A stretch of 64,000 bases of DNA from Methanobacteriota archaeon (GCA_963720465.1 OY970393.1:1504001-1568000); one strand, 5' to 3'. Positions 29,587 through 56,201 are shown, numbered from the stretch's first letter. Made by a program: numbers and translations. Notes: a model not told the origin generated them from the sequence alone.

Positions 29587-29633
29587 GATGGGCTCGAGGC
29601 GATTCGAAAGCCCGGCATTCGCCGTTTAGAGGC
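29587..29633 (-). repeat. Degenerate att site: copy of the tRNA-Val 3' half
   Basis: 42/47 identity to 56126-56172. Confidence 0.9.
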
Positions 29634-29790
29634 TCATTTTTTGAATTTGGGCCCTTGCTGAGCTTTTCTGTTTACGTTCAGCAACTCTGACGAAAAAAGC
29701 TAGGGCCCCTTCGTGTACCGTTTGATATATGTCCATACTTGAACCTACAAGCCCACAAAACGCCGCGGTCGCCAAATGATCGGGGAGGCG
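29634..29790 (-). pseudogene. Putative Int-N remnant running into the att copy
   Basis: FCGLVGSSMDIYQTVHEGALAFFVRV, homologous to ORF 37420-37605. Confidence 0.6.
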
Positions 29791-30137
29791 TGAGACGGCG
29801 TCGAGCTATGAATGCCTATCTTGTGCCTGCGGTAGCAAGCGTCTCAGAACGCGTCAAGCTCGCATAACTGTTATGATTACATGGCAGCGTTTCAATGATT
29901 GGTTGCGCCGCACCCGAGCAAAGAAGAGCCCGCAAAGGAAGAAGAAGCATCAGCTAAACGCTGCACCGAAGCCGCTGGAAAATAGAAGGACGATCAAGTG
30001 GACGTCAGATCGTTCGAACGTATTCATTTTTTGACCGTTTGAACATCACAGCATAGTTTCTCCGGTCACGTGAAATCGAAGCGTTTATAGCATCTTCTAT
30101 CACGTTTCTGCATCAACGAACGTTTTGGGAGGCAGTC

Positions 30138-32267
30138 ATGCGCGTAAACAAAACCGTCTCATTTTCTGTAGTCATCGTTCTCATTACGATGTTATTTGCA
30201 AGTGTTGTAACCGTTCCTGCGGCAGCGCAGTCGACTCCCCCCACCATAACCTCCGTCAACCCCATCAACAACATGATAAACGTCCCGGTCACCAAGACGA
30301 TCGACATCACTTTCAACAAGACCGTCCAGCAAGGCACGAACTACTCCAACATCGAGCTTAAGAAGGGCGCTATCAGCGTCAACACCACCACCACCATCGC
30401 CGGCGACAAGCTCACCATCACGCCCAACGCCCCGCTCGCCTATAACACCAGCTACACCGTCTTCATTCCCAAAGACGCCGTGAAAAACGGCACGGAGACC
30501 ATGATGAGCGACTTCACCTCGCGCTTCACGACCGTAGCAGTACCGACGAAGGGCAGCACACTTGACGCTCCCGCCACCGCGAACGCCACGAGCAACGTCA
30601 TCAGCGTCACTACCAAGATGCCAACCGCGCTCACCCTTACAGCGTCCAACCCCACGCCCACCGTCAACCAACCGGTAACCTTCACCGCCACCCTCAAGAA
30701 TGGCACAACGCCCCTGTCGTCCAAGTCCGTCACCATCTACCACTACCTTAACAGCGTCCGCTACAACGACACTACCAACGCCACCAATGCCACCGGCCAG
30801 ATCACCGTCACGACAAGCTTTGGCTCTGCCGGCACACGCACCTACTACTCCACCTTTGCCGGGGACGGCTCCTATCAGAACTCGACGAGCAGCGTTGTCA
30901 CCGTGAACGTCACGGCACAGACGCAACTCTCCCTCACCGCGTCAAACACCACCCCCGCCGTCAACCAATCCGTCACTTTTACTGCCACCCTCACGAGTGG
31001 CACGACGCGCCTCCTAGGAAAAAACGTCAGCATTTACCACTACCTCAACGGCGTGCGCTACAACGACACCACTGCGAACACTGGCACCACCGGCCAGATC
31101 ACCGTCACCACGAGCTTTGGTTCTCCCGGAGAACGCACCTACTACGCCAGCTTCGCCGGGAACAGCTCCTACCAGGCGTCGACGAGCAGCGTCGTCAGCG
31201 TCAACGTCGACGCTCAGACGAACATCACCTTTACCGCATCAAACACGACTCCAATCGTCAATCAGTCGGTCAACTTCACGGCCACGCTCTCGTGGTCGAA
31301 CCCCGTGACCAGCCAGCGGCTACCTGTCATCGGCAAATCTATACAGATTTGGCACACCCTCAACGGCGTGCGCTATAACGACACGACAATCAACACGAAC
31401 AGCAGCGGCACGGCAACGTTCACACAGAAGTGGACATCAGCCGGCACACGCTACTATTATGCCACCTTCGCGGGCGACACGTGGTACAAAACCTTTAGCA
31501 GCAGCGCAGTCACCGTTGACGTCCAGACCGACACGCAAACTATCTATTACGTTCCCCAGGCAGGATCAACGTGGGTCAACCAGGGGACGGCAGGCGCCAG
31601 CTATAACGCGTACGTCAGCAATCCTGGCTCATTTCAGACCCAGTCAAACGGCTACCCCTATTGGGGTGACGACACGAGCAGTGATTTTGTCTGCATCCCG
31701 GCGGGCAGCGCAACCAACAACCAGAACGTCGTTTCGTGGGAGATAGGCTTTCATTTCTCCGGAGTAGTGGCTGGCCAGCGCTACCAGAAAATTTGGGACA
31801 AAGCGTGTGGTGGTTTCTTCTTTGAAATTGACACCTCACTTGGCGCTAATAATAGTGAACTTACCATCTACCGCGCGACAACCGGCGGCAGCGGGGCACG
31901 GTGGTACATACCGACTGATACCGTACTCCGCGCAGGCCACAATTATTACATTCAAATTGCGTGGAACACCAGCGCGGGCCCAGGAAACGAACCATATCCG
32001 ACGGTCTGGATCGGTGTGGATGGAAACGCGCCGGTGCATCAAACGCACTTCGACGAGAGCGGCGGCGCTCTTGGCGGAACCGGATCATGGTGCAACGATT
32101 CAGTGGGTTCTGCGAACCTGGGCAATACGGGTTCAGACGCTCCTGGCAAAGCGTCAGCGAAGATTGACTCGCTCAACGGCGGCTTCTTTGTCTACCGGCA
32201 ATTCAGTTCAATCGTTAATTTTAGTAACGGTGGAAACTGGAACACCGATAAACTGCGCTGGACCTAG
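30138..32267 (+). CDS. Secreted protein: SbsA-type Ig domain + 3 Ig-like repeats + C-terminal LamG/concanavalin-like domain
   Basis: Shared MRVxK signal peptide; PPTITSVNP...ITFN...LTITPNAPLAYNTSYTV; Ig repeats as in the 26891 gene; beta-rich C-terminal domain. Confidence 0.8.
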   Translation: MRVNKTVSFSVVIVLITMLFASVVTVPAAAQSTPPTITSVNPINNMINVPVTKTIDITFNKTVQQGTNYSNIELKKGAISVNTTTTIAGDKLTITPNAPLAYNTSYTVFIPKDAVKNGTETMMSDFTSRFTTVAVPTKGSTLDAPATANATSNVISVTTKMPTALTLTASNPTPTVNQPVTFTATLKNGTTPLSSKSVTIYHYLNSVRYNDTTNATNATGQITVTTSFGSAGTRTYYSTFAGDGSYQNSTSSVVTVNVTAQTQLSLTASNTTPAVNQSVTFTATLTSGTTRLLGKNVSIYHYLNGVRYNDTTANTGTTGQITVTTSFGSPGERTYYASFAGNSSYQASTSSVVSVNVDAQTNITFTASNTTPIVNQSVNFTATLSWSNPVTSQRLPVIGKSIQIWHTLNGVRYNDTTINTNSSGTATFTQKWTSAGTRYYYATFAGDTWYKTFSSSAVTVDVQTDTQTIYYVPQAGSTWVNQGTAGASYNAYVSNPGSFQTQSNGYPYWGDDTSSDFVCIPAGSATNNQNVVSWEIGFHFSGVVAGQRYQKIWDKACGGFFFEIDTSLGANNSELTIYRATTGGSGARWYIPTDTVLRAGHNYYIQIAWNTSAGPGNEPYPTVWIGVDGNAPVHQTHFDESGGALGGTGSWCNDSVGSANLGNTGSDAPGKASAKIDSLNGGFFVYRQFSSIVNFSNGGNWNTDKLRWT

Positions 32268-32671
32268 CGCCTGTATATCGGGAAGTGCGTATGATCCGGG
32301 AGGCGAAGGTGTGAAAAGAGCGGTAATGCGCGTAAGAGCGCAGCGCAACCCTAGGCGAGATTTGCAGTAGCAGAGCCGGCCGGGCTGTTGATAAGCACGC
32401 TCGAAAGGTGTGCGACAGCAAAACCCATATGGGAGCAGTTTGCTTGGCGTTGAAAAGGGTGCGGGGAGAGAGAGCGCAAAGCGGGCACCACCTTCAAGGA
32501 TGAGGAAAAAGGCGCGTGCCCGGTCAGCACGACCGAACTGTGATTGCCTTCTAAAGTGGGAAATATCTTTTGAAGAGAGAGAATGCGCTTAGATTTTGTC
32601 GCTGAGCGCTTACAATGCCGTTAAACGGGTTATTTGTTATGCCTAATCTGCGTATGTGTAACTATCGGTCA

Positions 32672-33143
32672 TCAATGCTGTGATTCGAGAATCTTAGCTA
32701 CAAAGCGCTTTACATCTGCGGCGTACTCCGTGCTTTTAACATCTCCCTCAAGAATGTCAAGCTTGCCAGCTGCTGGCATTCCGCAAAGTTTTTCCATGGT
32801 TTTGAGTGCCTTTTCACTCCCGGAACCTCCGTACGTGCAAAAGAATGCGACGCTCTTGAACTTGTTTTTGTTCTGCAGTAGATACGTCCGCACCGGGCCG
32901 GACATATTTCTTGCCCATACCGGAGTGCCGACAACGACCAGATCATATAATGAGGCATCGTTCTTAGGGGGAGCGATTCTCGCGCGAGTTCTGAGCAATG
33001 TCTGCAGTACCAGCTGAGCTCATGCCCTTTCCCTGCGTGTCGGAGACGATCGCCTCTATGTCAGCGCCGAGGGCGCCTGCAAGCGCTTCAGCTACAATTC
33101 TCGTATTTCCGGTTCGTGAGTAAAATGCTACGAGCGATTTCAT
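32672..33143 (-). pseudogene. Frameshifted flavodoxin-family gene (paralog of 8589-9062)
   Basis: MKSLVAFYSRTGNT in one frame, GTPVW...VAFFCT in another; shift near 33015-33020. Confidence 0.8.
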
Positions 33144-33577
33144 AGGTCGAGATACGAGGCACTACTTAATAGAACCGCCAGTCTGAGTTGTTACCAAAAA
33201 CGAGCTGGAGTCACGCCAATGGACAGCGAAGACGTGAATGATGCAAGAAAAGCGACGAATTTCAAAAGTGAGGCTTTGTGAGGCTCCGACCTCGCAACAA
33301 ACCATTGCTGGGGTAATAGTCAGCAGATAAAACTTAAGTTCCTGCAGTGAGCAGCAAGGGGGCCTTATCGCCCTCGGCTCCTTTTTTTCGCAAGTAGGCC
33401 CGAGCCAAGTAGCAGAACGGCTTCCTTTGGTCCTATCCTAGCCCCTAGCTCATTATCTCTTTTTTCGATTTCAAGGCCCCAAAGCAACTTAGCGCCCCTC
33501 ACTCGCCTTTTTGCGACCGGAGGCTTTATTTATCCCTTGACATTTTGTTAGGGCAACGAACGTTTTTCGAGGCAATC

Positions 33578-34798
33578 ATGCGCGTATACAAAATCGTCTC
33601 ATTTTCTGTGGTCATTCTTCTCATTAGCGTGTTATTTGCAGGCGTTGTAATCGTTCCTGCCGTGGCGCAGTACGATACGCAATACCAGTATAACGCTGCG
33701 CACACGGGCGATTACAGCCTGGTAGCAGGGAGCACACCACCAAACAACGTTCAGAAGTGGAGCTTCACGACCGGAGACCTCGTCGACTCCTCCCCCGCCG
33801 TCGTTAACGGCGTGGTCTACCTGGGAAGCAATGACCACAACATCTACGCGCTTAACGCCACCACTGGAGCGAAGGTGTGGAACTATACGACCGCAGGCTT
33901 GGTTGAATCCTCCCCCGCCGTAGTTAACGGGGTGGTATTCGTGGGGAGCGAGGACGGCAACGTCTACGCGCTCAACGCCAGCAACGGGGCGAAAGTGTGG
34001 AACTATACGACCGCAGGCTTGGTTGAATCCTCCCCCGCCGTAGTTAACGGGGTGGTATTCGTGGGGAGCGAGGACGGCAACGTCTACGCGCTCAACGCCA
34101 GCAACGGGGCGAAAGTGTGGAACTATACAACCTTAGGCGAGGTGTACTCGTCTCCCGCCGTTTTAAAGGGCGTCGTGTATGTGGGGAGCTATGACAACAA
34201 CGTCTACGCGCTCAACGCCAGCAACGGGGCGAAAGTGTGGAACTATACGACCGCAGGCTTGGTTGAATCCTCCCCCGCCGTCGTTAACGGCACGCTGTAC
34301 GTCGGGAGCTCTGACAACAACCTCTACGCCCTCAACGCCAGCAACGGGGCGAAAGTGTGGAATTATACGACCGGAGGCCACGTGCTCTCCTCTCCTGCCG
34401 TTGTCAACGGCACGCTGTACGTCGGGAGCTCTGACAACAACCTCTACGCCCTCAACGCCAGCAACGGGGCGAAGCTGTGGAGCTTTGCAACCGGGTTCAC
34501 GGTTTACTCCTCCCCCGCCGTCGCCAATGGCGTCGTCTACGTGGGGAGCGATGACAGCAACGTCTACGCCCTCAACGCCAGCAACGGGGCGAAGCTGTGG
34601 AGCTTTGCAACCGGGGCCGGGGTGGAATCCTCTCCTGCCGTCGTTAACGGCACGGTGTATGTAGGGAGCGAGGACAGCAACGTCTACGCAATCGGCAACG
34701 GAGCTGCGGCCACAAGTCATGGGATACCCGGCTTCGACGTCACGCTCGCTCTTGTCGGACTCATAATCATCGCTTACGCATTGAGGAGAAAACGCTAG
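33578..34798 (+). CDS. Secreted 8-bladed PQQ-like beta-propeller surface glycoprotein with PGF-CTERM
   Basis: Same architecture; IPGFDV + TM + RRKR. Confidence 0.92.
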   Translation: MRVYKIVSFSVVILLISVLFAGVVIVPAVAQYDTQYQYNAAHTGDYSLVAGSTPPNNVQKWSFTTGDLVDSSPAVVNGVVYLGSNDHNIYALNATTGAKVWNYTTAGLVESSPAVVNGVVFVGSEDGNVYALNASNGAKVWNYTTAGLVESSPAVVNGVVFVGSEDGNVYALNASNGAKVWNYTTLGEVYSSPAVLKGVVYVGSYDNNVYALNASNGAKVWNYTTAGLVESSPAVVNGTLYVGSSDNNLYALNASNGAKVWNYTTGGHVLSSPAVVNGTLYVGSSDNNLYALNASNGAKLWSFATGFTVYSSPAVANGVVYVGSDDSNVYALNASNGAKLWSFATGAGVESSPAVVNGTVYVGSEDSNVYAIGNGAAATSHGIPGFDVTLALVGLIIIAYALRRKR

Positions 34799-34869: not shown

Positions 34870-35118
34870 CTCAGGTTTTTAAGCTCATGCCTCCCCCTAC
34901 TTTATACAGAGGTCATGAACCGAATCAGGAAGCGGATGCTTGTAAAATCGCCCGTCAACGCCCAATACACCGTGAGTGAGAACACGAGCACGATTTGACG
35001 GCTCCCATTGAATAATATCGCCGTGCTGCTCAGCAAGTTTTCGCAAGTCTCCAAGAACGGAACGTCCCTTGAACCGCGCCGTGGGCATTTTCTGCCTCTT
35101 GACCCCCCCCTTAAGAAA
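34870..35118 (-). pseudogene. Integrase 3'-tail remnant E
   Basis: KRQKMPTARFKGRSVLGDLRKLAEQHGDIIQWEPSNRARVLTHGVLGVDGRFYKHPLP. Confidence 0.9.
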
Positions 35119-35124
35119 ACCAGA

Positions 35125-35159: not shown

Positions 35160-36065
35160 TTAGCGTCCCCCCGTAAAGATGGCGAGGTCGATTGCGTTCC
35201 CCATCGCAGTATATCCTGCCTGGTTCGGATGCACGCCGTCAGCCATTACGAGCGCAGGATTTGAATGTCCGGGATTCAATGGGTTGTCTATGACTGGATA
35301 AAAATTGATGACCGGGTACCCCTTCAAATTTGCGTACTCAACTATCCACGCGTTCAAACTGTCCCGTTCCGCGAGGTGGTAACTGCTGGGTATGACGGTA
35401 CAGAGGACAGGCACCGCGCCGTAGGATTCGACACGACTGCACATCGCCACGATATTCGCCTGTGTAGTTGCAAGCGGCACTTCACCATTCACTATGTCAT
35501 TCGTACCGCCCATGATAATGACGAAATGCGGGTCTAAAGCAAGGGCCGTGTCTATACGGGCGACCATATCCGCCGTTTTAGCCCCGCCAACGCCCTGATC
35601 AACTACCTCCCAATCCCCGCCGAGGCGTGTTTTGAGAAGATATGGCCAGTTATTCGGGTCAGAAAACCCTTCCGTGATTGAATCTCCGACACAAACTATA
35701 AGGTGCGCGTGCAGCTGGTGCGGCGGGGACATTGGGACTGAAGTAGTCTTGCCACTGCTGCTGCCGAATGGAAACGAGCCCGCTACGAGAGATAACAATA
35801 AAAGGACTAGCACGCCGTAAAGGATATATCGCTTGTCGACCTGCTGGGATGGCTCCCGAGGCGGCAGAGCGTGTGACAGCTTATCGCCTGAAAGCTTTAG
35901 TGGGGGATGTTGGGGAGACCGGTGGGGCGGTAGCCTTGCACGGGGGAGGAAGGATGTGCCGCAATCTGCGCACAATGCGGCGTACGGTTGATTCCTCGCA
36001 CCACATTTCTCGCAGAACTTTTTGTTACCCATAACGCGCTCGTATACGTAAGTCGGCTCAAACAA
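35160..36065 (-). CDS. Membrane-anchored SGNH/GDSL hydrolase with an N-terminal zinc ribbon
   Basis: CEKCG...CADCG, TM helix, GDSIT, GGTND, DGVHPN. Confidence 0.9.
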   Translation of the reverse strand: MFEPTYVYERVMGNKKFCEKCGARNQPYAALCADCGTSFLPRARLPPHRSPQHPPLKLSGDKLSHALPPREPSQQVDKRYILYGVLVLLLLSLVAGSFPFGSSSGKTTSVPMSPPHQLHAHLIVCVGDSITEGFSDPNNWPYLLKTRLGGDWEVVDQGVGGAKTADMVARIDTALALDPHFVIIMGGTNDIVNGEVPLATTQANIVAMCSRVESYGAVPVLCTVIPSSYHLAERDSLNAWIVEYANLKGYPVINFYPVIDNPLNPGHSNPALVMADGVHPNQAGYTAMGNAIDLAIFTGGR

Positions 36066-36517
36066 TAGAGCTAAGGTCGGTTTATCCTAAGTGTTGCCTA
36101 CCGTTTTGGCTTACACACACGCGACTTAAAGATACCGATTTATGCCGCCATTTTTGATGTGTTAACGTGCACATTCATAGAAACGCGTTCCCGTGTTGAG
36201 ACAGACCGCGTCAGCGGTAGCTTGAGAGCACATTCTTGCAGTTGGGTTATCACGTTCAGCACGAATTCGCCACTCGTACAAGCAGTGTACGCCCGGATCA
36301 ATAAAGGCGAGAAGATGGAGGCCTTCTACAAGCTCTTTGCTGCTTACATTCGCACAATACCGGTGGAATAGCTAATAGAAAGCGTAGAACGAGCGCGGCG
36401 AGACGCCCAACTACGGCACGTGGTAATATAGGAGTGCCGGCGGCTACTGCCTCGGCAGAGCCGAACGTCTTGAGGGATCGTATTTGCGAACGCTTGCGAT
36501 CGAGTTGGGGGCGACAG

Positions 36518-37183
36518 TCACATCCGACCCTTCTCCATCCAATACTCATACTGATGAACCCGGTCCGCCTTGTTTGCCTCGATTAGTTGCGCGAAGAACG
36601 TTCTTCTCTCTGCGATCTCCTTCTCCTGCGCCGGATACGCGCGCTTTGTTTGAATCGATTCTGCGAGCGTCGTTCCGAGCTTAAACGCCTCGTTAATAGC
36701 AGCATCAAGGGCAGCAGAGTTCCTGTCAAGGGCAACGCCGACCTGTCCTACCGTCAAGACGCCGAGTTCATTCAGGAAATGGTTCATGTAGTCGAGCACT
36801 GCTGCGTCACCTGAACCACCGGACGTGGTCACGGAACAGCCATATTTACCCGAAAGCAGCTGACAATAAATGGCATCGGCCATCCGATCGATAACTGTCT
36901 TAAGTTGCGCGGTCACGCTGTGCATGTACACAGGCGACCCGAGCACGATCCCATCGGCGCTGAGCATCTTGTCTACCAATTCAGCGAGATCGTCCGCCTG
37001 AACACACTCACCTTCGGCGTAACAAACCTGACACCCGAGACAATACCGTATGTCCAGTGCGCCGATATCAACCAGTTCCGTTTCTGCTCCGCGCTCCTTG
37101 GCACCATCTAGGACAGCATCAACCAGCTTAAGCGTCCGACTGTTCTTCCCACGCGGACTGCTGTTTATTCCGAGTATTTTCAT
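36518..37183 (-). CDS. Iron-sulfur flavoprotein / flavodoxin-family (NADPH-FMN reductase-like)
   Basis: INSSPR, CLGCQVC...C, GSPVY, LKTVIDR. Confidence 0.9.
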   Translation of the reverse strand: MKILGINSSPRGKNSRTLKLVDAVLDGAKERGAETELVDIGALDIRYCLGCQVCYAEGECVQADDLAELVDKMLSADGIVLGSPVYMHSVTAQLKTVIDRMADAIYCQLLSGKYGCSVTTSGGSGDAAVLDYMNHFLNELGVLTVGQVGVALDRNSAALDAAINEAFKLGTTLAESIQTKRAYPAQEKEIAERRTFFAQLIEANKADRVHQYEYWMEKGRM

Positions 37184-37419
37184 CGTTGTACCTCGATTAC
37201 GTACGACAGGCCCCGCTGCTAAAATAGTTATTTCAGACTGACAACAAACATACGCTCGATATGGAGTTGCAATCGCGGTGTGGCAATATTCGCGAGGAGG
37301 AGGACTGGGGCTGCATAACAGAGGACGATGTACGCCAAGGGCAGCGACTAGCTGACACGATCTTCGTTGTCACCCTGTAAGCACACAAAGCGGCCCTGCG
37401 TGCACCAAAAAGCGAGCTA

Positions 37420-37605
37420 TTGGAGATCCGTCGCAGCAAAATCTCGATCCACCACGTCAAGGCAGGATATGACTACCCAGCAATACGCATTCCCTTCACC
37501 TTTTCAGGGCTTATAGGGCTGTCAACGTGCATCTACCAAACGGTTCATGCTGGGGCTCTTGCGTTCCTCGTAGTTGTCTCGCCGACGTCAAAAAAAGCAG
37601 TCTAG
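37420..37605 (+). CDS. Small AbrB-like protein / putative Int-N fragment
   Basis: YDYPAIRIPFTFSGLIG...IYQTVHAGALAFLVVV, homolog of 29634-29790; followed by CGTCTTGACAT (Val-GAC anticodon-arm-like) at about 37643-37653. Confidence 0.55.
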   Translation: MEIRRSKISIHHVKAGYDYPAIRIPFTFSGLIGLSTCIYQTVHAGALAFLVVVSPTSKKAV

Positions 37606-37714
37606 ATAAACGCGAAAACGCGAGTTTAAGCGTCAAATCCCCCGTCTTGACATTACGGTGCGTAACAACCAACTTATGATCGCCTATATCAGGCGGAGGT
37701 TAATTCGTTGTAAA

Positions 37715-37861
37715 AACCCAGCTAAGAAGTGTGGCGCCATCATTTCTTTAAGCGGAATCGCGTTTATTGCTCTTCCCGCAGGAATATTTGACGCCGGCTA
37801 CCTTGACGAGTGTCAACACCGACGCAATGAAAATCAGCAAACAGAGTCCAATTCCCCTTGA
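37715..37861 (+). pseudogene. C-terminal fragment of a potassium/ion channel (S6 helix)
   Basis: KCGAIISLSGIAFIALPAGIFDAGYLDE. Confidence 0.65.
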
Positions 37862-37883
37862 AATCGCTATCGGCTATTTTTAT

Positions 37884-38165
37884 TTAGATATTCTCTAAAT
37901 AATAGGGGTCGTTCTCGTCGCGTGGCACGAGAGTTATCTCATCATCCCAGGCGTCTTTTATCACGTAGGATTTGGCGACCGCATCACAAAAATAGGTATG
38001 TCCATTTAGCGCCCCCCGGAGCGTATTATACTTAGCGACGACGTAACTCGTATTTTTATCAATAAGCGCGGTTTCGGGCGCGCCGTTAACCTCTATTGTC
38101 GATATGATTATTCCCTTGACACCATCGCGCGCTATCTGTGTTTGACTTGGACGGCAGCATGCCAT
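37884..38165 (-). CDS. Hypothetical protein
   Basis: 93-aa ORF with an SD-like GAGGG upstream and a TATA-like element. Confidence 0.45.
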   Translation of the reverse strand: MACCRPSQTQIARDGVKGIIISTIEVNGAPETALIDKNTSYVVAKYNTLRGALNGHTYFCDAVAKSYVIKDAWDDEITLVPRDENDPYYLENI

Positions 38166-38640
38166 TTTTAACCCTCTATGCCCTCGATGTGTATATCACT
38201 CTTAACAATTCCTATGACGGATAGTCCTGCCGCGATCATGCCTTGCGACTTTTCTTTGAGTTGGAGTAGACAATGTCAAAGCGTTAAGGAGAGGCTCCGT
38301 TTCTGCATACCCCTTTTTTCGCCCTCAAATAACTCTCTTGAATCACGCTAGTATTGCCTCTGAATAACACGGGATGGAGACTGAAGGACTTCTCACAGTT
38401 CCTTAAAAAAATACACCATATCCAGTCTCCTATAGATAATAAAATCCCTTGCGGATCACTGAACGCGGCGTGGCGCGTTTTACCTTGGCTTAGAATCTGA
38501 ACCAGTCATGGAGGAAACATCTTTCCGATAGAGGTTGATGGTCACCCGCTGACTAGGAGCACACATACTGAACACCCCTACTCTCAAGCTCGCGCAGATA
38601 CAATCGGTGCCTTTAAGCGCTCTGATTCAGGGAGTATCAT

Positions 38641-46124: not shown

Positions 46125-46220
46125 TGAGAATTCGACATCGCTCCAATACTTCCTATAGATATCAAAAACCGGCCCAGGCCTTGGACTCTTGTAAAACCTC
46201 CAGTCCACACTTGCTATCCT
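46125..46220 (-). pseudogene. Integrase 3'-tail remnant F (not in the ORF track)
   Basis: Manual translation RIASVDWRFYKSPRPGPVFDIYRKYWSDVEF vs GVSGVEWGHYRNPLPENVYDIYMKYWRDVDF. Confidence 0.85.
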
Positions 46221-47155: not shown

Positions 47156-47486
47156 GATTCATCTCCTTGTTAGGTAACTACGTTTTATCTAACGTTTTTT
47201 CACTAGAGCAGATTCTTATAAGGCTTTTTCGATTTTGACTCGTTTTTGCAGTCTCGCGGGATTCTGAACCCCCAGAGCACTCGCTCGCTCTTGAAAAAAT
47301 AGCGATCAAGAACTTTAAACGCAAGGGCAATAGGCACTGGAGCATTGGTTTCCACGGGAATCGCCTTCGGCTTGGCAACATCTCCTCATCGCTTCCAGTT
47401 CTCGCCGCAAGCAAGGGATATCGTCGTCGTTGTGTTATCCGTTCACACAAAGCGATCGTCTTTTTCCTGGTAATGGTCATAGGGCT

Positions 47487-47663
47487 ATGCTGGTGTTGGG
47501 GCCACTCGCCGTTTATGCCGTGACGCTACGAAATTTCGACCGCATCTTCGATCCCATCATCCGTTTCTTGAAAAAACACGGCAGTCAGCTGATTGCCGCC
47601 GTGTTCTTTGTCATCGGCATCTACCTTGTCGCGCGTGGCGTGACGTCGGCAATGATGTTGTAG
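47487..47663 (+). pseudogene. C-terminal fragment of a GAP/Sap-family membrane protein
   Basis: DRIFDPIIRFLKKHGSQLIAAVFFVIGIYLVARGV. Confidence 0.55.
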
Positions 47664-47697
47664 AAGATGTCATTTAAGCTTTCGAACTGATGGGGAC

Positions 47698-47975
47698 TCA
47701 ACCTGAAAGTTCGACATCGCCCCAGTATCGCACGTAAATATCGTGGACGTGCTCAGGAAGCGGATGCTTATAGAAACACCAATCCACTCCAGAAACGCCG
47801 TGAGTGAGAATGTAATTCCTGTTACTTTGATCCCACTGCAATATATCGCCCATTTGTTCACAAAATTTCCTAAGATCTCCGTGGACGATACGAGCATCGC
47901 TGTGCAACAGACGGACTTCGTTGTGCCTAAGCCACTGCTGAAAGGACAGTTGCGCAAAAGCAGGTTCATCATCTT
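47698..47975 (-). pseudogene. Integrase 3'-tail remnant D
   Basis: QDDEPAFAQLSFQQWLRH...GDLRKFCEQMGDILQWDQSNRNYILTHGVSGVDWCFYKHPLPEHVHDIYVRYWGDVEL. Confidence 0.92.
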
Positions 47976-48054
47976 GTCACAGTGTAGGGGCCAGATCGAA
48001 AGACTTAATTCCTTCCCAAATAACGCTCTGCTTTGCAGTCAAAGGTTCATTCAG

Positions 48055-48990
48055 ATGAATATCACAACGCACGCGGTCGTCGCGTTTGTGCTCGGGATCG
48101 TTCTTTTCCGCAACGTTGAGCTTGCCTTGATCATGCTCATGGGTGCCGTGATTCCTGATTTAGATCGAGAGTATTTCTACTTGAAAAGAGACCGCTACAG
48201 GGCGCTTCAGCTTCACCGAGCAGCCCTTCACAACTTTGTGGTTGCTGGGATATTGTGGGTAGCGAATCCTCTCTTGGCTCTCGGCGCCTTGAGCCATTAT
48301 TTTTTGGACATCTTTACGTCGGCTACTGATCGGGGCATTGAGTTCTTGTTTCCTTTTACTAGGGTTGTCGGCACGTGGCTGTATGGCATCGAAGGGGAGA
48401 CCAAAAACGGAGTAAAGATGTTCAAGTACACCGTCAAGGAGAAGAAAACGGGGGAAAAGAAACTACAATGGTGGGTGGAAGACCCGTGGCGTTTGCTATA
48501 TCAGACCAGTGAGGTTGATCTGTTCGAACCAAATCCGCAACCTTGGAGGAGATCCTACGGGCCTTTTAGGAATAGCAAGATTGTCGACTGGGGAATATTC
48601 GTTGGAAGCGTGTTATTTCTACTTTTGCTACTCGTGCCTGCCACATCGCGAACAACATTTTATTCATCACTCGGGCTCGACCTGCTTCACGGGTTTTGGT
48701 TCGGCTTGGCATTCGGAAGTATCGCCTTATTCTTTTGGCTAGGAGAACGTTCCCGGAAACAATCGGCTGAACCGCAGCTTAAGCTCACGAACTGGCCGGT
48801 TGACGCAGCGCTTCTCGTTGCAGTTATCCTCTTTTTCCTAGGGGGACTTTTGGGAGGGGTCTTTTCTGTGCACTTGCCCAGCACCATAGCCACAGATGTG
48901 CTTGGAGCTGGCGTCGGCTCAATAGCTATTGGTCTAATCCTATCTTACGGGTACAGGAAAATGAGAAAGTCTGAAGACCTATCACTATAA
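48055..48990 (+). CDS. Membrane-bound metal-dependent hydrolase (YdjM-like)
   Basis: TTH, GAVIPDLD, HRAALHN, SHYFLD, G...LFPF. Confidence 0.85.
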   Translation: MNITTHAVVAFVLGIVLFRNVELALIMLMGAVIPDLDREYFYLKRDRYRALQLHRAALHNFVVAGILWVANPLLALGALSHYFLDIFTSATDRGIEFLFPFTRVVGTWLYGIEGETKNGVKMFKYTVKEKKTGEKKLQWWVEDPWRLLYQTSEVDLFEPNPQPWRRSYGPFRNSKIVDWGIFVGSVLFLLLLLVPATSRTTFYSSLGLDLLHGFWFGLAFGSIALFFWLGERSRKQSAEPQLKLTNWPVDAALLVAVILFFLGGLLGGVFSVHLPSTIATDVLGAGVGSIAIGLILSYGYRKMRKSEDLSL

Positions 48991-49103: not shown

Positions 49104-49206
49104 TCAACCCACAAGTTCGACATTCCTCCAGTATCGCATGTACGTGCTGTAAACGTTTTCGAGCAAAGGATGCTTATAGTACTTCCAATCGATGCCGCTC
49201 ACCCCG
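49104..49206 (-). pseudogene. Integrase 3'-tail remnant C
   Basis: Manual translation GVSGIDWKYYKHPLLENVYSTYMRYWRNVELVG*. Confidence 0.9.
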
Positions 49207-49327
49207 TTCGGCCATAATTGCAGCACAGCTGAAAGACAACGCTTAAGCCAACACGCCGCCTTTTGCCTGTTGATTTCGTTTTTTTTTTTTGTCTGAGAGG
49301 ATTTGTTTGGAAAAAAAGTTCGTAGCT

Positions 49328-50104
49328 ATGAAACAGCATTATGTGCCTCAATTTTATCTTCGGAATTTCTCACCGGATGGAAAAGGGCTATGCTGCTGCA
49401 ATTTAGCGACTAGAAAATCAAAACGTCTAAAGATCAAGAAGCTTTTTGTTGAACGTGATTTCTACGCAGGTAGCTCAACGGCATCGACAATCGAACTTGA
49501 ATTATCTAAATTAGAGGGCAAGGATGCCAAGATCATTCAACAGATTCTAAAGACGCACACTCTTACAAGCAAAACGGGTGAAGACTTGTTCGATCTAAGC
49601 AGGTTAGTTCTTGTCATGGCCTCGCGGACAAAAGCAACAAAAAATAGCCTTGAGAGGAGAGCCTTTCTTTACGATTATTCTATGGAAAAACTCGGCCTTA
49701 GACCAGAAGAGGTGAGAGGTGAGAAACTTAATCCAAAATCACTTAATTTAGGCGCTATGGAATTGGTATTGAATCTGCCAGAGATAATCTCTGGTCTGGC
49801 GAACACACTCTTAATCAATAAAACGAATGATCCGTTTACCCCTTTTATCACGTCTGATTCTCCGGTGATCCGCTATAACTTAATAGCGAGAGATTTAACA
49901 GATAAAGATTTAACAGGTTTTCTAAATAAAGGCCTCATCATCGTTCTTCCGCTTAGCGAAGAGGTTGCCCTCTGTCTATTTGATGGTGAAAGATATAAGC
50001 TAAAAGACGCGATAAATGGCAATATTATCATACCGGATAGCGAAGTGTCCTATCACTTCAGGACGATAGGTTATGGGGCCCGCGTTCCCTGCCTGTTGCT
50101 TTGA
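49328..50104 (+). CDS. DUF4238-domain protein (possibly truncated at the C-terminus)
   Basis: KQHYVPQFYLRNFS, FITSDSPV, LPLSEEVALCL. Confidence 0.88.
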   Translation: MKQHYVPQFYLRNFSPDGKGLCCCNLATRKSKRLKIKKLFVERDFYAGSSTASTIELELSKLEGKDAKIIQQILKTHTLTSKTGEDLFDLSRLVLVMASRTKATKNSLERRAFLYDYSMEKLGLRPEEVRGEKLNPKSLNLGAMELVLNLPEIISGLANTLLINKTNDPFTPFITSDSPVIRYNLIARDLTDKDLTGFLNKGLIIVLPLSEEVALCLFDGERYKLKDAINGNIIIPDSEVSYHFRTIGYGARVPCLLL

Positions 50105-50775
50105 AATTACCATTTCTTGAAATTTATAATGACACTTTTCAAGGACTGGAACTGTTCAAGGTCAGAAATGAAGAGGTATTAGCTTCTTTACAGAACACTA
50201 TTGAAGAGGTTAGTAAAAAGCTTTCTAACACGTTCACATACGAGTAACAGGCTGATATTGCGCTATAATCCAGCTGTTGAGAATAACTATTTTCGATAAC
50301 TGCATTATTGAGCAGTGATAGAGATGCGCGCCCTAATGGTGATTCTGAGCAATCGCATAAAGCATTATATATCATTATTAAGCGGGACTAGCATCAGGTT
50401 AGCGGTCTAAGCGAGAGAGTGCCACTACAAAGTCGTGGCCACCGAGGCCGGCGAGTCGAATGAGAGCGAATTGAAAAAGAATAATGGATGATTTTGCGTT
50501 TAGTGTCGCGTTGGGGGGCGGTTCGCACCTTTCTGCAATTGGTCAGTCCCCCCGTCAATCCGTCGGTTAGGCCCCCATAGGCCTTTTTTGCGAACCGCCC
50601 GAAGCTTGCCACCTTAACTGGGTAGCCGTGCAGAAATTTTCACGCGCCTTTAACGTCATGAATGAACATTCCAGAGCTCTTATCCCTTCTCTGCTCGTTT
50701 TGAACACCCTTGCTAGACTCGCTAAGGTGCCTCTTAGAATGACGGAATGCAATAACCTAGCAATATAGATACCAT

Positions 50776-53700
50776 TCACTGCTCTTGTTCCCATTGTCTC
50801 TGTTTATCACGAAGGGTTGGATATCTTCCAATTAAACTTTGAAAAATAACCCCGACATCGTGCTGTAATGGTTTAGGGGTTTTGAAAAGCAGATCAACGG
50901 CGTTTCCGATGTCGCCAATGTAGCACTCCTGCGGATACTCCAACAGCTCCTTAAAAATGTCCACAAAATCCTTCTTGCTCACTGTGAAGATCATTTCCAG
51001 CATATCGCCATTTGCATAATATGGCGCTGAAATCCTTTTTGGGTATTCGAGATGAGTAGTCAGATATTCTTTTTCTGCGGCGATACATTTCTTGTAAATT
51101 GATAGAAGTTCATTTTGATAATTTGCATTGTTAAAATTATCCTTCACGAGGGAGTAGATGCTGTCATATGCGCTTTGGTCATATCTCTCGACAATCCTGC
51201 GCACATATTTAAGTGTCTTACTTAAATAGCTCTCGCCGGCGCTGCTTTTCGCATGCGATAATGACCACATATGCCAAGCAATTGTAGATTTAGTCGCTGA
51301 ATCTCTTTCAATCAAACGGCAGAGCAAATCCTTGAACGGAAGCTTTTCTTCTGGACTGAAATCTCGGCGAAGCTCGGCGAAACAGATTATGGTTCCCAAA
51401 TACTTTTTTAGAGCCTCGACATCGGCCTCCACAAAGATGTTAACTGCTTTCGTCGCGTGCGCTAGGTCAACGGACCGCAGTCTGTTAAAAACGTCGGCCA
51501 TTGCGACTTGCAAGGCCTGTCTTTTATTCTCCTCCTTTTCAAGCATCTCAAATGCAATAGCCTCTACTTCATTTGCTTGTCCCTCTGACATGAACCTCAT
51601 GCCGTTCGCCTTCGCATTTCTATTCTCAGCAAGTCGAGCCAACGCCAGGCACGATAGCTGTCTCACGTGAAGATTTCTATCTCTCGTAAGACTTCGGACT
51701 AACGCGATCACCTCGTCCACTTTACCTTCAATGCCACTCCTTACAACACTGCTGATAGCCCAAGCAGCGTACCCCCTGACGGTTCCTATGACCATGACGT
51801 TCGCATTTGCGACATCGATATCCTTTTCGTTACTGGGGTCGGGGTCGCTAACAAATCTCTCAATAAGCTCAAAACTCGGTATTGGATTCTCTTTATCTTT
51901 TGCAGCGCATTCTGTTACGAATTGCACCAGCAACTCACGCGAGTGACTAAAAGAAAACTTGGTTACGAATAGGTCGTAATTAGCAGTAAGTGCATTTGCA
52001 GCACTGAATGCGCGTTCTAATGCTTTTCGGCTATGTCTGTTGTGCAAATCGTGCAATGTCCCAGCCAGGAGCTGTTGTTCGTTGATGGTCAAAAAATCTT
52101 TGTTTTTTATGTCGTTCCATGTTGTCCAACCTTCGTTTGGGCGTTTCACGATTATCCTTGCGAACAACGCGCAGAATTCGCGCACTTGAATTTGGTTAAG
52201 GCGTTTTATGAACGACTCATTGGCGACAAGTTTTTTAAATATCGACGTTGCCCGATTTGAGTCATGACACAGTAATTTCTCGACGTTCGGAATGAGATTG
52301 CCATTGAAAAACAAATCATACTCCAGGTAGCCAGGATTGCTCGCCCACGCCTCTATTTGCGCGATTGCTTGTTTGTGGCCCATAAAAGCTAGGTCGCCTA
52401 CAACTTGGTCCACGAATGGATTGACAGGGCCGCCTGCGGCGGTTATTTTAACAGCCTCCCACTTCTGATCGTCTGTAAACTTGCCAGTTTTCAAGATCTG
52501 ATATACAAATTCAGCGTTATCAGACACATGTCTTCCTGATAGTAGGTGCCCTCCCAAAATCTCCGAGGCTTCTTGGTTGCCTTTCTTATATTCATCAAGA
52601 ACGAATGGAATAGCGATTCGATTGAGGAAATCCGGCCTGTTCTTTGAAACCTCCGTGGGCTCCACTACGCAGTTTTGTTTTATGAAACTCCACCTAGTCT
52701 CGCAGTTGAAATCTCGCAACGCTGGAATCAAGGTGCACAGGATAAATTGTTTTTCTGGAACCTCGTAATCATGCCCATAAACAGCACTTATAGGTCCGAT
52801 GAGATCCCAGCCTTCGAAATCGCACCTGAATTTTTGTCTGTAGAACTTCTCGTATTGCGTGGCGAGTTTGCTTGACATTGCCAGGAATCTGTGCTCGAAA
52901 AATTCGTTATTGTTATCGTTAAGAAAGTGTTTCAGGATTCGAAATATCTCTCTTGGGGCATAGCGACTATAGTTACCTTCGTCTCCGATGACATTGAAGG
53001 TGTTAATGATGAATTCATAGATCTGCTCTTTGGCATCCTTGGTAGATTTCTGATATAATGATTCCAATGTATTGCATAAGTCGCTTTTGCGATGCAATTT
53101 ATCCTCGTCGGCGTTGAGGTAGAAAAGCTCCTCGTCGTACTTTTCGAACTGTTTTTTCAATATGCTTAAAACCGCTTGATGCAGCGAACTATCTTTCTCA
53201 ACAATGGCCGTCAGCAGTTTTGCCAAACCGCTTTCAAAAAAAGTGTCAAAATAGAAGGTATTCAATTGATCTAAGTTGCTCTCAACAAAAGATAAAATGC
53301 ACCTCCTATTCGCCTTATTCGCTATGTTAGCACGGAAAACATCGAATAGTTGCAGAGGATAATAGATTTTGCACGCGTGCCAAACGTTCGTCCAGTCGGC
53401 CAATTTTAAGTCATGTTTGACCTTCAATTTGTCAAGCAACAAATACATTAAGGCGGGATCTTGCGATAAGGCGGTAATCTCGCTGTCTCCGGCCCCTAAA
53501 TTCCCCCCTCTCGCCGCCGCATCAATTTTGTCGATCTGTTTTTCATAACTAGTTAGTTTGGCATTAAAAATTGTTGATCTATCTTTGGCTTTAGAGGCTT
53601 GAGATTGAATTTCGCGCTCCATATCTTCGCGCTTATACACGATGCCTTCAGCAGACCCCCAATGGAACACTTTGAGTAAAATGCTGCGTACAACGTCTTC

Positions 53701-54216
53701 TATATCATCTTGGGGTAGCCAAAAGCCGATAACTTGACTGAATAACAAGTAGACTAAATCTTCAAGAACACTCTTGGGTTGCTGCCAAAGTCTTAGTTTT
53801 GAAAGGAGTTGCCCGTGCTCTCGCTCATACCCTTTCTTCGCTAACTCGTCTTCTAGAACTTCCTGCGGGTAAAATCTCAGCGCTTCTATTTGTTTAAAAG
53901 TCTCAGAAGTCTCAATGCTGCATAGGCTGGTTATCACTAGTATCTCATCGGCAGCGTCGGCAGCTTCTTTCTCTTTGTCATATAGATTCTTGACGAAAGC
54001 TTTGAGAATGTGCTCACGCAATCCCTCTTTCCGATCTTTAGCTTCACATACTATCTTGTGACCTTCGGCAAATACTAAGGTGAAGTCAATAGCGCCTGGC
54101 GTCTCCAATTGAATAGACAAGAACGCAGGAGTTTTCAGGTACTGCAGAAATAACGCCAGCGCGGCAAGTGTCTGATAGTTTTGCCCTTTGAAAGGGCCAC
54201 GTCCTGGATGTGTCAT
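50776..54216 (-). CDS. 1146-aa protein: N-terminal PD-(D/E)xK (Cap4/DUF4297-like) nuclease + HEAT/ARM-like solenoid; candidate defence protein
   Basis: KGQNYQ...LE...IDF...VCEAK; helical remainder with HEAT-like TVRGYAAWAI and DRNLHVRQLSCLALARL; AT-rich. Confidence 0.7.
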   Translation of the reverse strand: MTHPGRGPFKGQNYQTLAALALFLQYLKTPAFLSIQLETPGAIDFTLVFAEGHKIVCEAKDRKEGLREHILKAFVKNLYDKEKEAADAADEILVITSLCSIETSETFKQIEALRFYPQEVLEDELAKKGYEREHGQLLSKLRLWQQPKSVLEDLVYLLFSQVIGFWLPQDDIEDVVRSILLKVFHWGSAEGIVYKREDMEREIQSQASKAKDRSTIFNAKLTSYEKQIDKIDAAARGGNLGAGDSEITALSQDPALMYLLLDKLKVKHDLKLADWTNVWHACKIYYPLQLFDVFRANIANKANRRCILSFVESNLDQLNTFYFDTFFESGLAKLLTAIVEKDSSLHQAVLSILKKQFEKYDEELFYLNADEDKLHRKSDLCNTLESLYQKSTKDAKEQIYEFIINTFNVIGDEGNYSRYAPREIFRILKHFLNDNNNEFFEHRFLAMSSKLATQYEKFYRQKFRCDFEGWDLIGPISAVYGHDYEVPEKQFILCTLIPALRDFNCETRWSFIKQNCVVEPTEVSKNRPDFLNRIAIPFVLDEYKKGNQEASEILGGHLLSGRHVSDNAEFVYQILKTGKFTDDQKWEAVKITAAGGPVNPFVDQVVGDLAFMGHKQAIAQIEAWASNPGYLEYDLFFNGNLIPNVEKLLCHDSNRATSIFKKLVANESFIKRLNQIQVREFCALFARIIVKRPNEGWTTWNDIKNKDFLTINEQQLLAGTLHDLHNRHSRKALERAFSAANALTANYDLFVTKFSFSHSRELLVQFVTECAAKDKENPIPSFELIERFVSDPDPSNEKDIDVANANVMVIGTVRGYAAWAISSVVRSGIEGKVDEVIALVRSLTRDRNLHVRQLSCLALARLAENRNAKANGMRFMSEGQANEVEAIAFEMLEKEENKRQALQVAMADVFNRLRSVDLAHATKAVNIFVEADVEALKKYLGTIICFAELRRDFSPEEKLPFKDLLCRLIERDSATKSTIAWHMWSLSHAKSSAGESYLSKTLKYVRRIVERYDQSAYDSIYSLVKDNFNNANYQNELLSIYKKCIAAEKEYLTTHLEYPKRISAPYYANGDMLEMIFTVSKKDFVDIFKELLEYPQECYIGDIGNAVDLLFKTPKPLQHDVGVIFQSLIGRYPTLRDKQRQWEQEQ

Positions 54217-54459: not shown

Positions 54460-54630
54460 CGTGGCCTAATGCTTCATAAATGCATCATACCGTGCGTAGG
54501 CAGCGGATGCTTGTAAAATCGCCAATCGACTCCTGAGACGCCGTGCGAGTATGTAGTTCTTATTTGACTGATCTCAGCGCGAGATACCACCTTACCACTT
54601 ACAAGTTTGCGAGATGCCTCGAAAATGGCT
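54460..54630 (-). pseudogene. Integrase 3'-tail remnant B (heavily decayed)
   Basis: *DQSNKNYIL/HGVSGVDWRFYKHPLPTH/YDAFMKH*. Confidence 0.85.
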
Positions 54631-54659
54631 CGGCAGGAAGCTCAAGTTCAGCGACAGAG

Positions 54660-56180
54660 CTAGATTGTGAAGTCGACGTCTCTCCAGTACTTCATGTAGA
54701 TATCATATACGTTCTCTGGCAAGGGATTTCGATAATGCCCCCACTCAACCCCTGAAACACCGTGTGTCAAGATGTAGGCTCTGTTTGACTGATCCCACTG
54801 AATAATGTCGCCGTACTGCTCGGCGAATTTCCTCAAATCGCCGAGAACGAACGGCTTTTGGAACCGCGACATCGAGATTTTCTGTCGTTTTATCCACTGC
54901 AAAAAGGAACTGTGAGTGAACATCAGTTGGTCGTCATTTCGCCCAGCGAGTAGGGGTTTAAGGGCTTCCACAACGCGAGGCGCCAGCGGCACGTAGTGGC
55001 TCATACGAACCTTGTCTTGCGACGAATCAACGAGGAGCACTGGCTTATCAGCAGCCAACGCCGTGCGGAACTGGCCTACCCTTAGCTTCGCCGTCGTAGC
55101 TTCGCTCCGTTGGCCGGTGTACGCCTCAAACAAAACGAACGCCGAATATTTTGCTGATCGCTCAGAACTGATCTCCCCTTCTCGTTGTGCTTTCTCTATG
55201 TGTTGGAGAACGTTGCTAATATCCTCCTTAGTCACGATACGAGAAGTGACGTTCTTGCGCTCTTTGACCGTTTTTGGAGGCTCTAAGTAGGCAGTGAACG
55301 TCTGATAGCGCGGTTCGGCGCGAGTCATGGCGAGGAACTTGAGGAAAGACTTGGCAAAGTTGAGCACTTTAGAATGAGAATCGGTCGATGTATACTCCTC
55401 TAGTGTTCGCTCCCGAAGCGTTTCGACAGTGTGATGTGATATCGCCCCTATCGTGCAATCCCACAATAGCTTTGAAGATCTGTTAATCCAATCCCGCGAT
55501 TTCTGAGCAAGGCCGCTCGTACGATACGTAACGTAACGATCAAGCTCATCCCGCGAGAAGCTAAGCGAATGCTCTTTTTGGTGAAGAGTACTCGAGGATA
55601 TGACTTTAGCCCCCTCCGCGCCGCTCTGTGTTTGCGTTGATGATGGCGTTGGTGCAGGTATCAGTGTTATTGGCTGAGGAGTTAGTGTCACTGCCTCGCG
55701 CTTCATTGCCTTCTTCGCTATTTCCTTTAAGTGATCGGCAATAGCTACACTATATTCAAACTCAGGATCTTCCACGAGCTCTTCCTCATCTTGAGGGGCA
55801 AGACGCGCCCAACGCGCTTCAGAATCGACCACAATATCGTCGAAATAAGCTTGCCAATCTATCGGCAGAAGGTCGACTAAGCGCGTAGACTCGTTCTCGT
55901 GTTGGGGTGCTGAATGAACATTTCCATTCTCGGTATATTGGTAGGAGGTCTCATCGTGCGCTTCCTCCTCTCCCAACCCTTCGCCTGCGGAGTTGTGCAA
56001 CTTTTCATCAAAGTTGTGCAACTTTTTGTCCTTGTTGTGCTCATCTTCTCCCAAGATTCTCACTACCGACAAACGGCTATCTGAGGTCTCTAACGTCCTC
56101 TGGGTCTCCGATTTGGAAAAGAATAGATGGGCTCGAGGCGATTCGAACGCCCGACCTTCGCCGTGTAAAGGCGATGTCAT
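54660..56180 (-). CDS. int: Tyrosine integrase whose reading frame overlaps the tRNA-Val 3' half (probable Int-C of a split, SSV-type integrase)
   Basis: AYTGQR (R), QDK (K), GDLRK (xxxR), LTHG (H), WGHY (Y); the frame begins inside the tRNA. Confidence 0.88.
   Translation of the reverse strand: MTSPLHGEGRAFESPRAHLFFSKSETQRTLETSDSRLSVVRILGEDEHNKDKKLHNFDEKLHNSAGEGLGEEEAHDETSYQYTENGNVHSAPQHENESTRLVDLLPIDWQAYFDDIVVDSEARWARLAPQDEEELVEDPEFEYSVAIADHLKEIAKKAMKREAVTLTPQPITLIPAPTPSSTQTQSGAEGAKVISSSTLHQKEHSLSFSRDELDRYVTYRTSGLAQKSRDWINRSSKLLWDCTIGAISHHTVETLRERTLEEYTSTDSHSKVLNFAKSFLKFLAMTRAEPRYQTFTAYLEPPKTVKERKNVTSRIVTKEDISNVLQHIEKAQREGEISSERSAKYSAFVLFEAYTGQRSEATTAKLRVGQFRTALAADKPVLLVDSSQDKVRMSHYVPLAPRVVEALKPLLAGRNDDQLMFTHSSFLQWIKRQKISMSRFQKPFVLGDLRKFAEQYGDIIQWDQSNRAYILTHGVSGVEWGHYRNPLPENVYDIYMKYWRDVDFTI
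55991..56040. repeat. 21-bp-periodic quasi-palindromic repeats near the att
   Basis: AGTTGTGCAACTTTT at 55991 and 56012; GTTGTGC at 56034. Confidence 0.7.
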
Positions 56181-56201
56181 AACCAGCTAGACCACGAGCC
56201 C
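56128..56201 (-). tRNA. tRNA-Val (TAC), intronless, CCA not encoded
   Basis: GGGCTCGTGGTCTAGCTGGTTATGACATCGCCT-TTACAC-GGCGAAGGTCGGGCGTTCGAATCGCCTCGAGCCCA cloverleaf; TATA about 25 bp upstream. Confidence 0.97.

Follow-up and report, generated by a model that had tools for sequence, protein, structure and literature searches.

Orphan 3′ Ends of a Tyrosine Integrase Gene in a tRNA-Val Island of a Peatland Archaeal Lineage

The window analyzed here, 64,000 nucleotides of the 2.31-Mb single-contig archaeal genome G000 (G000:C1:1504001-1568000), holds an island of foreign genes of ~26 kb that adjoins a tRNA-Val gene. The tRNA-proximal end of the island is occupied by the gene of a tyrosine integrase, and five orphan 3′ ends of related integrase genes, hereafter called tails, are interspersed among the cargo. 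Comparison with the rest of the genome and with related genomes indicates that the conserved 3′ end of this gene is where the cargo of mobile elements is joined and left behind, and that the pattern is lineage-wide. We favor, at a probability of about 0.5, a composite island assembled from elements with one tyrosine integrase family by serial integration, loss of attachment (att) sites and gene bodies, and recombination between tails. Metagenome-assembled genome (MAG) records related to G000 come from peat, bog, and fen by their titles and carry the labels bog_38, Methanomicrobia, or Halobacteriota.

Five Integrase Tails Lie among the Cargo of the Island

Tails were sought by tblastn of the 506-amino-acid (aa) integrase open reading frame (ORF) against the window and with a profile of 64 family members, 404 positions long. 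Both methods place the same five C-terminal pieces in the window, all on the minus strand (Table 1). A preliminary description of this DNA had reported these five pieces and the C-terminal block in which the integrase ORF ends, and both observations stand; as a decoy control, the reversed genome gave 0 domain matches, against 84 in the real genome (i-E<0.05). The tail nearest the integrase gene, which we call the secondary tail, starts ~70 nt past the integrase stop codon, is frameshifted, and has its 3′ side cut after the motif HPLP. The tail at 47704-47976 is an open frame of 92 codons with no clear start. None of the window tails forms, in its own frame, an ORF with a clear start; the ORFs listed at 47670-47972 and 45836-46210 use other frames. 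The tail farthest from the tRNA, at 34.9 kb, is convergent with a PQQ/PGF-CTERM gene, and the sister genome G010 has the same arrangement with a whole (pseudo)integrase.

The six integrase copies in the window are only distantly related to one another. Their last 90 coding nt are 38-67% identical among themselves, and the nearest relative of each lies at another locus or in another genome (59-86% identity; 74-83% for four of the five tails). This agrees with the earlier proposal that the copies come from independent elements, and the five tails appear to derive from at least five integrase lineages besides that of the intact gene, each tail being joined to its own 3′ flank.

The Pattern Extends through the Genome and the Lineage

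With a tail-only locus defined by a profile start of at least 287 of 404, G000 holds 49 tail-only loci, nine full-length genes (four of them intact ORFs), and three other fragments. Neighboring loci less than 12 kb apart lie on the same strand in 38 of 41 pairs, and 37 of the 49 tails are within 25 kb of a full integrase gene. Within arrays, the spacing of tails is 0.2-11 kb, mostly 0.6-3 kb. The natural 3′ end is reached by 38 tails, and the 11 others have lost it. Tails are therefore far commoner than other fragments, non-randomly oriented, and clustered rather than scattered, the opposite of what the preliminary description regarded as marks of ordinary decay.

Matches to the integrase occur in 18/18 genomes of the genus, 624 in all, and in 13/13 genomes of the class (Bog-38-type peat methanogens) that are at least 80% complete. 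The 76 loci considered in public genomes contain 80 full genes and 87 tails, 78 of the tails in the orientation of the central gene, against 19 heads or middles, although some of these loci overlap and the counts are not independent. Outside the family, the integrase is found in 15 of 196 other genomes of the phylum, with one to four matches each. The tail pattern was not seen in these 196 genomes, and two Methanospirillum integrase loci have no tails.

Tails Are Truncations without an Adjacent att Site

The tails are true truncations and not genes decayed past detection, since intact genes or gaps of 365-1000 bp fill the place of the missing body. Such genes are the YdjM-like gene, the DUF4238 gene, and a GDSL hydrolase gene; other arrays have gaps too short for a gene body. 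At codon positions 1, 2, and 3, the columns have a conservation of 0.80, 0.86, and 0.60, respectively, which argues that the tails diverged as coding sequence, and many contain stops or frameshifts. Their 5′ ends in G000 range over profile positions 287-384, and the sequences upstream have nothing in common, save in a few duplicated junction families. Downstream, the last 66 nt and the following 50-160 nt are alike at similar identity within groups of tails. An att-like remnant accompanies 0 of the 49 tails in G000, whereas a tRNA or partial tRNA adjoins the integrase 5′ end in 7 of 12 cases.

These properties bear on ordinary pseudogene decay, in which the tail would be the most conserved and longest-detectable part of a dying gene, or a remnant sheltered by a selected gene. 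The tail is the family's best-conserved part and the relics evolve neutrally, as decay would have it, but upstream of most tails there is no room for a decayed body, and the gene middle scores equally in the profile, residue for residue. Only 3/61 loci are heads or middles, and the pattern is confined to one family, with 49-91 first-look candidates per genome in five family genomes versus 1-7 in those of the 196 others that were listed individually. Neither the orientation nor the distance of the neighboring gene follows a rule: 16 neighbors are convergent with the tail, 15 are co-directional, and 7 tails have none, counts that rule out a convergent gene as the general shelter. We consider decay alone unlikely.

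No evidence of selection keeping the tails was found in the secondary tail at nine loci or in one duplicated pair. The core of the secondary tail has a pairwise identity of 0.56-0.63 across the nine loci, against 0.52-0.65 at codon position 3 of the neighboring gene; selection on this tail was dismissed, as it changes at about the synonymous rate. In the duplicated pair, the last 66 nt of the tail are 0.85 identical and the downstream flanks 0.75 and 0.89, with 94% identity over 200 nt upstream, so that the end of the tail seems to be conserved no better than its flanks. A functional role, as peptides whose catalytic-tyrosine segment would interfere with newly arriving integrases, or as RNAs, regulatory or antisense, directed at competing elements, might be read into the 555 database proteins of 30-277 aa that carry the tail (some clusters have up to 31 members), into the few that begin with Met just before HPLP, and into the predicted flexibility of the C-terminal segment (pLDDT<50 at residues 457-489). 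Most tails, however, have no start codon or carry stops and frameshifts, and together with the two comparisons above this makes a function highly improbable. The tails are best regarded as neutral, non-functional relics.

The Tail Behaves as a Recombination Junction

The most direct indication of how tails arise comes from 37 intact genes (666 pairs). All three pairs with a body identity of 0.86-0.93 are only 0.58-0.82 identical beyond alignment column ~435-450 (GDLRK...WDQSN), as far as the gene end, and the downstream DNA is unrelated in both of the near-identical-body pairs examined. The end of the gene goes with the flank: 13/13 flank-sharing pairs have the last 54 nt in common and 46% the preceding 54 nt, while among 24 pairs that are at least 0.9 identical in the preceding segment, the last 54 nt are common to 38% and the flank to 8%. 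One last-segment type (YIKYWQNTQL) occurs with three different preceding segments. Because the homology of close relatives ends inside the tail, the tail appears to be a recombination junction for cargo modules. The preliminary description had offered a recombination hub of this kind as its alternative, and of its proposals this one gains the most direct support.

Junctions also recur as units. A DVDFT-subfamily integrase and its secondary tail have the same junction at three loci in G000 and in G010, and DVDFT-subfamily integrases in several other genomes have similar 3′ flanks. One cargo-tail junction is common to two arrays of G000 and a bog_38 MAG. Types of orphan tail, with their 3′ flank, are also found behind whole integrase genes elsewhere (e.g., the VSLKI and QNTQLGN types), and the PQQ-gene/integrase pair of G010 corresponds to the 34.9-kb tail of the window. 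Judged by these alignments, the states that would precede orphan tails do exist.

Two candidate mechanisms were rejected. A cryptic att inside the tail is not seen, the similarity being limited to scattered 8-9-mers, none in the tail; and in the intact genes (n=37) wobble positions mark out no strongly conserved DNA core, the one sign of it being a mild reduction at the HPLPE codons.

Both results also count against an integron-like system, in which tails would be attC-like sites and the integrase would insert and excise "cargo + tail" cassettes singly, downstream of its own gene. Such a system would account for full genes followed by co-oriented tails 0.4-3 kb apart and for the recurrence of a tail and short 3′ flank as a unit with different neighbors. 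It has a partial precedent in the archaeal integrase Int-pTN3, for which homology-guided activity on ~100-bp segments is described (PMC5495485). It is nevertheless at odds with the spread of 5′ ends, with the want of a common upstream junction sequence outside the few duplicated families, with the mixed orientation of the cargo, and with the decay of many tails, and we hold it to be decidedly unlikely, although the tails may have some integron-like activity. A broader version, in which the integrase 3′ end serves the Bog-38 class as a hub that would capture, copy, and shuffle "cargo + tail" through homology-guided crossovers, for which the integrase itself may be responsible, as in the case of Int-pTN3, is doubtful but has some claim. 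If it were true, these islands would form an archaeal, coding-sequence-derived counterpart of integron arrays, with ~10 islands and 50-70 tails per 2-Mb genome.

Serial Integration at tRNA-Val by an Undivided Integrase Gene

Positions 30-74 of the tRNA recur as partial copies with 98-100% identity in sister genomes, and the att site is therefore the last ~45 nt of tRNA-Val. A decayed att copy lies in the window 26.5 kb from the tRNA, where tblastn also matches the att-encoded peptide (29582-29632) and a middle piece of integrase (29135-29386). Downstream of this copy and on the same strand is the 5′/middle remnant of an integrase gene, its 3′ side cut off by a Big_3_5 gene, so that the left end is the att-int junction of an older element. 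The preliminary description had placed a terminal Int-N/att here; the order found is the att copy followed by the remnant, with no Int-N. A further supposed att remnant at 50467-50487 was dismissed on alignment.

Tandem direct repeats of the tRNA 3′ part are present in sister genomes, with one or two in G006, G008, and G011 and four perfect copies of 43-50 nt, with att-int junctions, in the tRNA-Val island of G010. The repeated integration at one tRNA that had been proposed can thus be seen directly in the sequence of that genome. In G011, a full integrase gene in the corresponding island is accompanied by some ten co-oriented tails, two further tails on the opposite strand, and a single distal att.

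The 506-codon ORF opens at an ATG inside tRNA-Val, but the likely start is near 56063, as in a 467-aa form in the databases. Many of 120 homologues include the tRNA-encoded peptide at their N terminus, others begin right behind it, and in a few att is translated in another frame; a third frame is used at an internal att-int junction in G010, which has only 80 nt before a reversed gene. Since homologues cross att in three frames or start after it, and since the far-end att copy precedes integrase sequence, the gene is not split on integration, its 5′ end merely abutting att. The SSV1-type split gene assumed in the preliminary description does not apply, att being upstream of the likely start codon, and consequently no chimeric Int-N/att/Int-C gene would be rebuilt at internal junctions, which consist of att and then a whole integrase gene.

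The integrase family is a divergent, uncurated tyrosine recombinase. The match to Pfam PF00589 (14.9 bits, E 0.023) is below the gathering cut-off of 27.1; there was no NCBIfam match, and no PDB sequence match with the profile. R358, K390, R450 (in LGDLRK), H473, and Y483 are invariant across 27 sequences, which suggests catalytic roles for them, and the first box II residue is Gly (LGDLRK). An AlphaFold model from the 27-sequence alignment has a pLDDT of 73-96 per 10-residue block over residues 201-430 (mostly at least 85, two blocks at 61) and a predicted two-domain fold with a core-binding and a catalytic domain. Its top 50 Foldseek matches in the PDB are all tyrosine recombinases, including XerA, XerH, lambda Int, Tn1549 Int, and Cre, with probabilities of 0.89-1.00 and E as low as 1.2e-4; the TM-scores are low (0.3-0.46) because of domain placement.

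In situ accumulation, with each tail marking one integration here, its att-int junction deleted on the spot and no recombination between tails, would follow from the tandem att-int junctions of G010, the loss of att from every tail in G000, and the different lineages of the window tails. It would not explain why an integrase and its secondary tail are passed on together at three loci and in more than one species, why identical cargo-tail junctions occur in different arrays and genomes, or why breakpoints lie inside the tail of intact genes. Eight-tail arrays inside single att-bounded units, and modules whose orientation relative to the tRNA is inverted between genomes, also argue against it, and in this pure form it is rather unlikely.

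The integrase gene takes one of two positions relative to att: beside the tRNA and directed away from it, or at the far end and directed inward (G000 347-387 kb and 2276-2313 kb; G010 L017/L018). In the tRNA-His and tRNA-Asp islands of G000, it is at the far end, points inward, and has its 5′ end against att. Head-to-head integrase pairs flank an att in G010, and an inverted pair at 370.7-371.0 kb of G000 consists of a tail and a 5′-shortened gene, with no att in between. Rfam found no tRNA in the 0.2-1.5 kb searched at each of the following places: immediately before three other full integrases, the inverted pair, and the genome ends. ARAGORN detects just 37 tRNA genes in G000, two of them odd, and many may carry introns or be missed; links between integrases and tRNAs are therefore under-counted.

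A Proposed Composite Origin and the Evidence against It

In a composite island, elements would integrate serially at the tRNA, as the tandem arrays of sister genomes illustrate, or tandem elements would fuse. An illegitimate event would then remove an att site and a gene body, and the remnant, having neither att nor enzyme, would no longer be excisable. Recombination in the conserved last ~60 codons, where the breakpoints of intact genes fall, would join an integrase body to the tail-plus-cargo module of another element; it would also move or copy ready-made "cargo + tail" segments between arrays and genomes and keep tails linked to their flanks. Arrays with no internal att would alone survive an active integrase. 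This is the ratchet of the preliminary description in corrected form: the absence of att-like remnants beside all tails in G000 fits it, whereas the deletion step, the enzyme responsible, and an end point so often in the gene's last quarter are what we infer.

A number of observations weigh against the composite origin. A simple att-centered deletion predicts many long 5′-truncated genes, and G000 has none that start at profile positions 100-280; relatives do have some, among the matches listed. The breakpoints are also approximate, since profile alignments begin at conserved motifs. For ordinary homologous recombination, the 64-89% identity of tail pairs over 60-270 nt is low. The most decayed parts of the window are the att copy and integrase remnant at its far end, and the five tails show no decay gradient (n=5). 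Two recent gene-sized exchanges with the tRNA-Val islands of two other species, whose core flanks are just 83-94% identical, have abrupt ends at gene boundaries, with no repeats and outside tails, and so tails are not the only junctions. Contigs of four sequencing runs from one study have the same arrangement but no convincing joint: they show no reliable joints for insertion or excision of single cassettes, and three joints in one run, with sides of 28-58 nt (two with sides of 30 nt or less), were taken as cross-matches between repeats.

The preservation of the tails toward the 3′ end is likewise only suggestive. The last 54 nt of orphan tails are 0.79 identical, compared with 0.66 and 0.57 in the preceding segments, 0.83-0.84 in intact genes, and 0.45 at random, but these are ungapped identities measured on the 38 tails picked for having the 3′ end, which the 11 others have lost. 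The gradient, if real, would fit a 3′ part refreshed by recombination with functional genes.

Relation to Known Systems

The islands are a lineage-wide, unusual variant of known tRNA-island accretion. A close parallel is with the tycheposons of Prochlorococcus, in which tyrosine-recombinase elements integrate at tRNAs, newcomers push older elements inward, integrase fragments and partial tRNAs remain, and cargo accumulates (bioRxiv 10.1101/2020.12.28.424599). In the methanogenic archaeon, by contrast, the remnants are mostly 3′ tails without partial tRNAs, co-oriented, and number 50-70 per genome, and the tail itself would be the recombination junction; a bias toward the gene end is not mentioned for tycheposons in the parts of that preprint available to us.

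As with the SSV-type ("suicidal") integrases, an archaeal tyrosine integrase targets the ~45-nt 3′ part of a tRNA, and fragments mark captured elements (PMC8371274). Here, however, att is outside the coding sequence, so that int(N) and int(C) halves do not arise; box II begins with Gly, versus Lys in SSV1/2 and Tyr in pNOB8 (PMC5495485). Exchange of modules by homologous recombination between tandem archaeal elements at one locus has been reviewed (PMC8371274) and is a second likeness, although in the present islands the junction appears confined to the last ~60 integrase codons and leaves orphan tails.

Like integron arrays, the islands have one integrase gene followed by ordered, co-oriented short conserved elements that separate cargo of one to a few genes. 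Unlike attC sites, which are structured, the separators are remains of coding sequence that decay and vary in their ends, and the cargo has its own promoters and either orientation; tails would be no more than candidate sites for a site-specific reaction. Int-pTN3 of Thermococcus, like the family described here, is an archaeal integrase linked to recombination of similar, non-att sequences of ~100 bp (PMC5495485), for which tails would be suitable. The two families are not detectably related by sequence, and the integrase here is only a candidate for the enzyme that makes the tail crossovers.

Literature searches returned no paper on Methanoflorens integrases and nothing on a 3′-end bias, and in them we found no description of the near-exclusive survival of one integrase end, with 50-70 relics per genome across an archaeal class. 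Tails could serve as natural bar-codes of past invasions, marking module boundaries in the flexible genome of a bog, fen, and peat lineage. An active recombination site in the tail would mean that archaea capture genes by a new route; otherwise, the islands are still well suited to measuring how integrated elements become disarmed and their cargo becomes fixed.

Cargo and Surroundings of the Island

Table 1. Features of the Island, by Position in the Window
Feature	Position	Strand	Basis or remark
5′/middle remnant of older integrase gene	29123-29389	-	profile positions 120-208; in-frame stops
Decayed att copy	29573-29633	-	54/63 nt match tRNA 3′ part and first downstream bases
Orphan tail	34900-35124	-	residues 424-497, 57% identity, E 6.8e-22; profile 327-394
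11-kb tail-free cargo	35160-45804		Pfam
Xer-like tyrosine recombinase fragment, other family	40408-40734	+	PF00589, E 8.7e-10; inside tail-free cargo
Orphan tail	46125-46217	-	residues 475-505, E 6.8e-6; profile 373-403
Cys-rich secreted protein gene	46586-47155	-	surrounding 1 kb 86-88% identical to two other G000 loci
390-bp unit	47276-47663		recurs with same ends in many genomes of the genus
Orphan tail	47704-47976	-	tblastn 47704-47973, residues 416-505, 56% identity, E 2.5e-29; profile 313-403
YdjM-like membrane hydrolase gene	47743-48990	+	Pfam; lone gene between two tails
Orphan tail	49110-49217	-	residues 470-505, E 4.5e-9; profile 372-402
Cargo block 1	49289-54216		1146-aa protein, three small ORFs, DUF4238
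DUF4238 gene	49289-50104	+	Pfam
1146-aa protein	50776-54216	-	no assigned function
Secondary tail	54492-54591	-	two pieces, residues 457-490, E 7.5e-4; profile 370-388
Tyrosine integrase gene, directly 3′ of att	54660-56180	-	506-aa ORF; profile match 54666-56048, 624 bits
att site, last ~45 nt of tRNA-Val	56128-56172	-	partial tRNA copies in sister genomes
tRNA-Val(TAC)	56128-56201	-	ARAGORN

The labels given to the cargo in the preliminary description hold for DUF4238, the YdjM-like hydrolase, the TATA-binding protein (TBP), the Big_3_5 and PQQ/PGF-CTERM surface proteins, and the Cys-rich secreted protein. They do not for the "nuclease", a 1146-aa protein with no match in Pfam, NCBIfam, or PADLOC, no named Atlas cluster, and one sub-threshold Pfam hit (HEAT_EZ, E 1.7e-4). 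The true start of the YdjM-like gene is probably later than annotated, because its Pfam match begins at residue 105. The 390-bp unit is found at 82-89% identity in at least 10 genomes of the genus and three times in G000, sometimes right behind the 3′ end of an integrase gene; a weak SfLAP hit of its 77-aa ORF is the sole family match.

The tail-free cargo comprises genes for an Ada-Zn protein, DUF2148, an HI0933-like flavoprotein, an S-adenosylmethionine (SAM) methyltransferase, a TBP paralogue, an FMN reductase, and the GDSL hydrolase. The SAM methyltransferase gene (41654-42775) and the DUF2148 gene with its promoter (44079-44685) are 98.6% and 96% identical, respectively, to sequences in the tRNA-Val islands of G010 and G011. 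A copy of the TBP paralogue (38540-39251) at G000 354650-355361, in the tRNA-Asp island, is 94.7% identical to it, and three further copies are 80-88% identical; these elements seem to carry transcription-factor paralogues with them.

Genes of Big_3_5 and PQQ-propeller/PGF-CTERM surface proteins flank the old att copy (26858-34798) and belong to large families that have many copies and internal repeats. In G011, the conserved chromosomal flank corresponds to the window only from about 22.3-22.8 kb, and the island therefore probably extends to the left of 29.6 kb.

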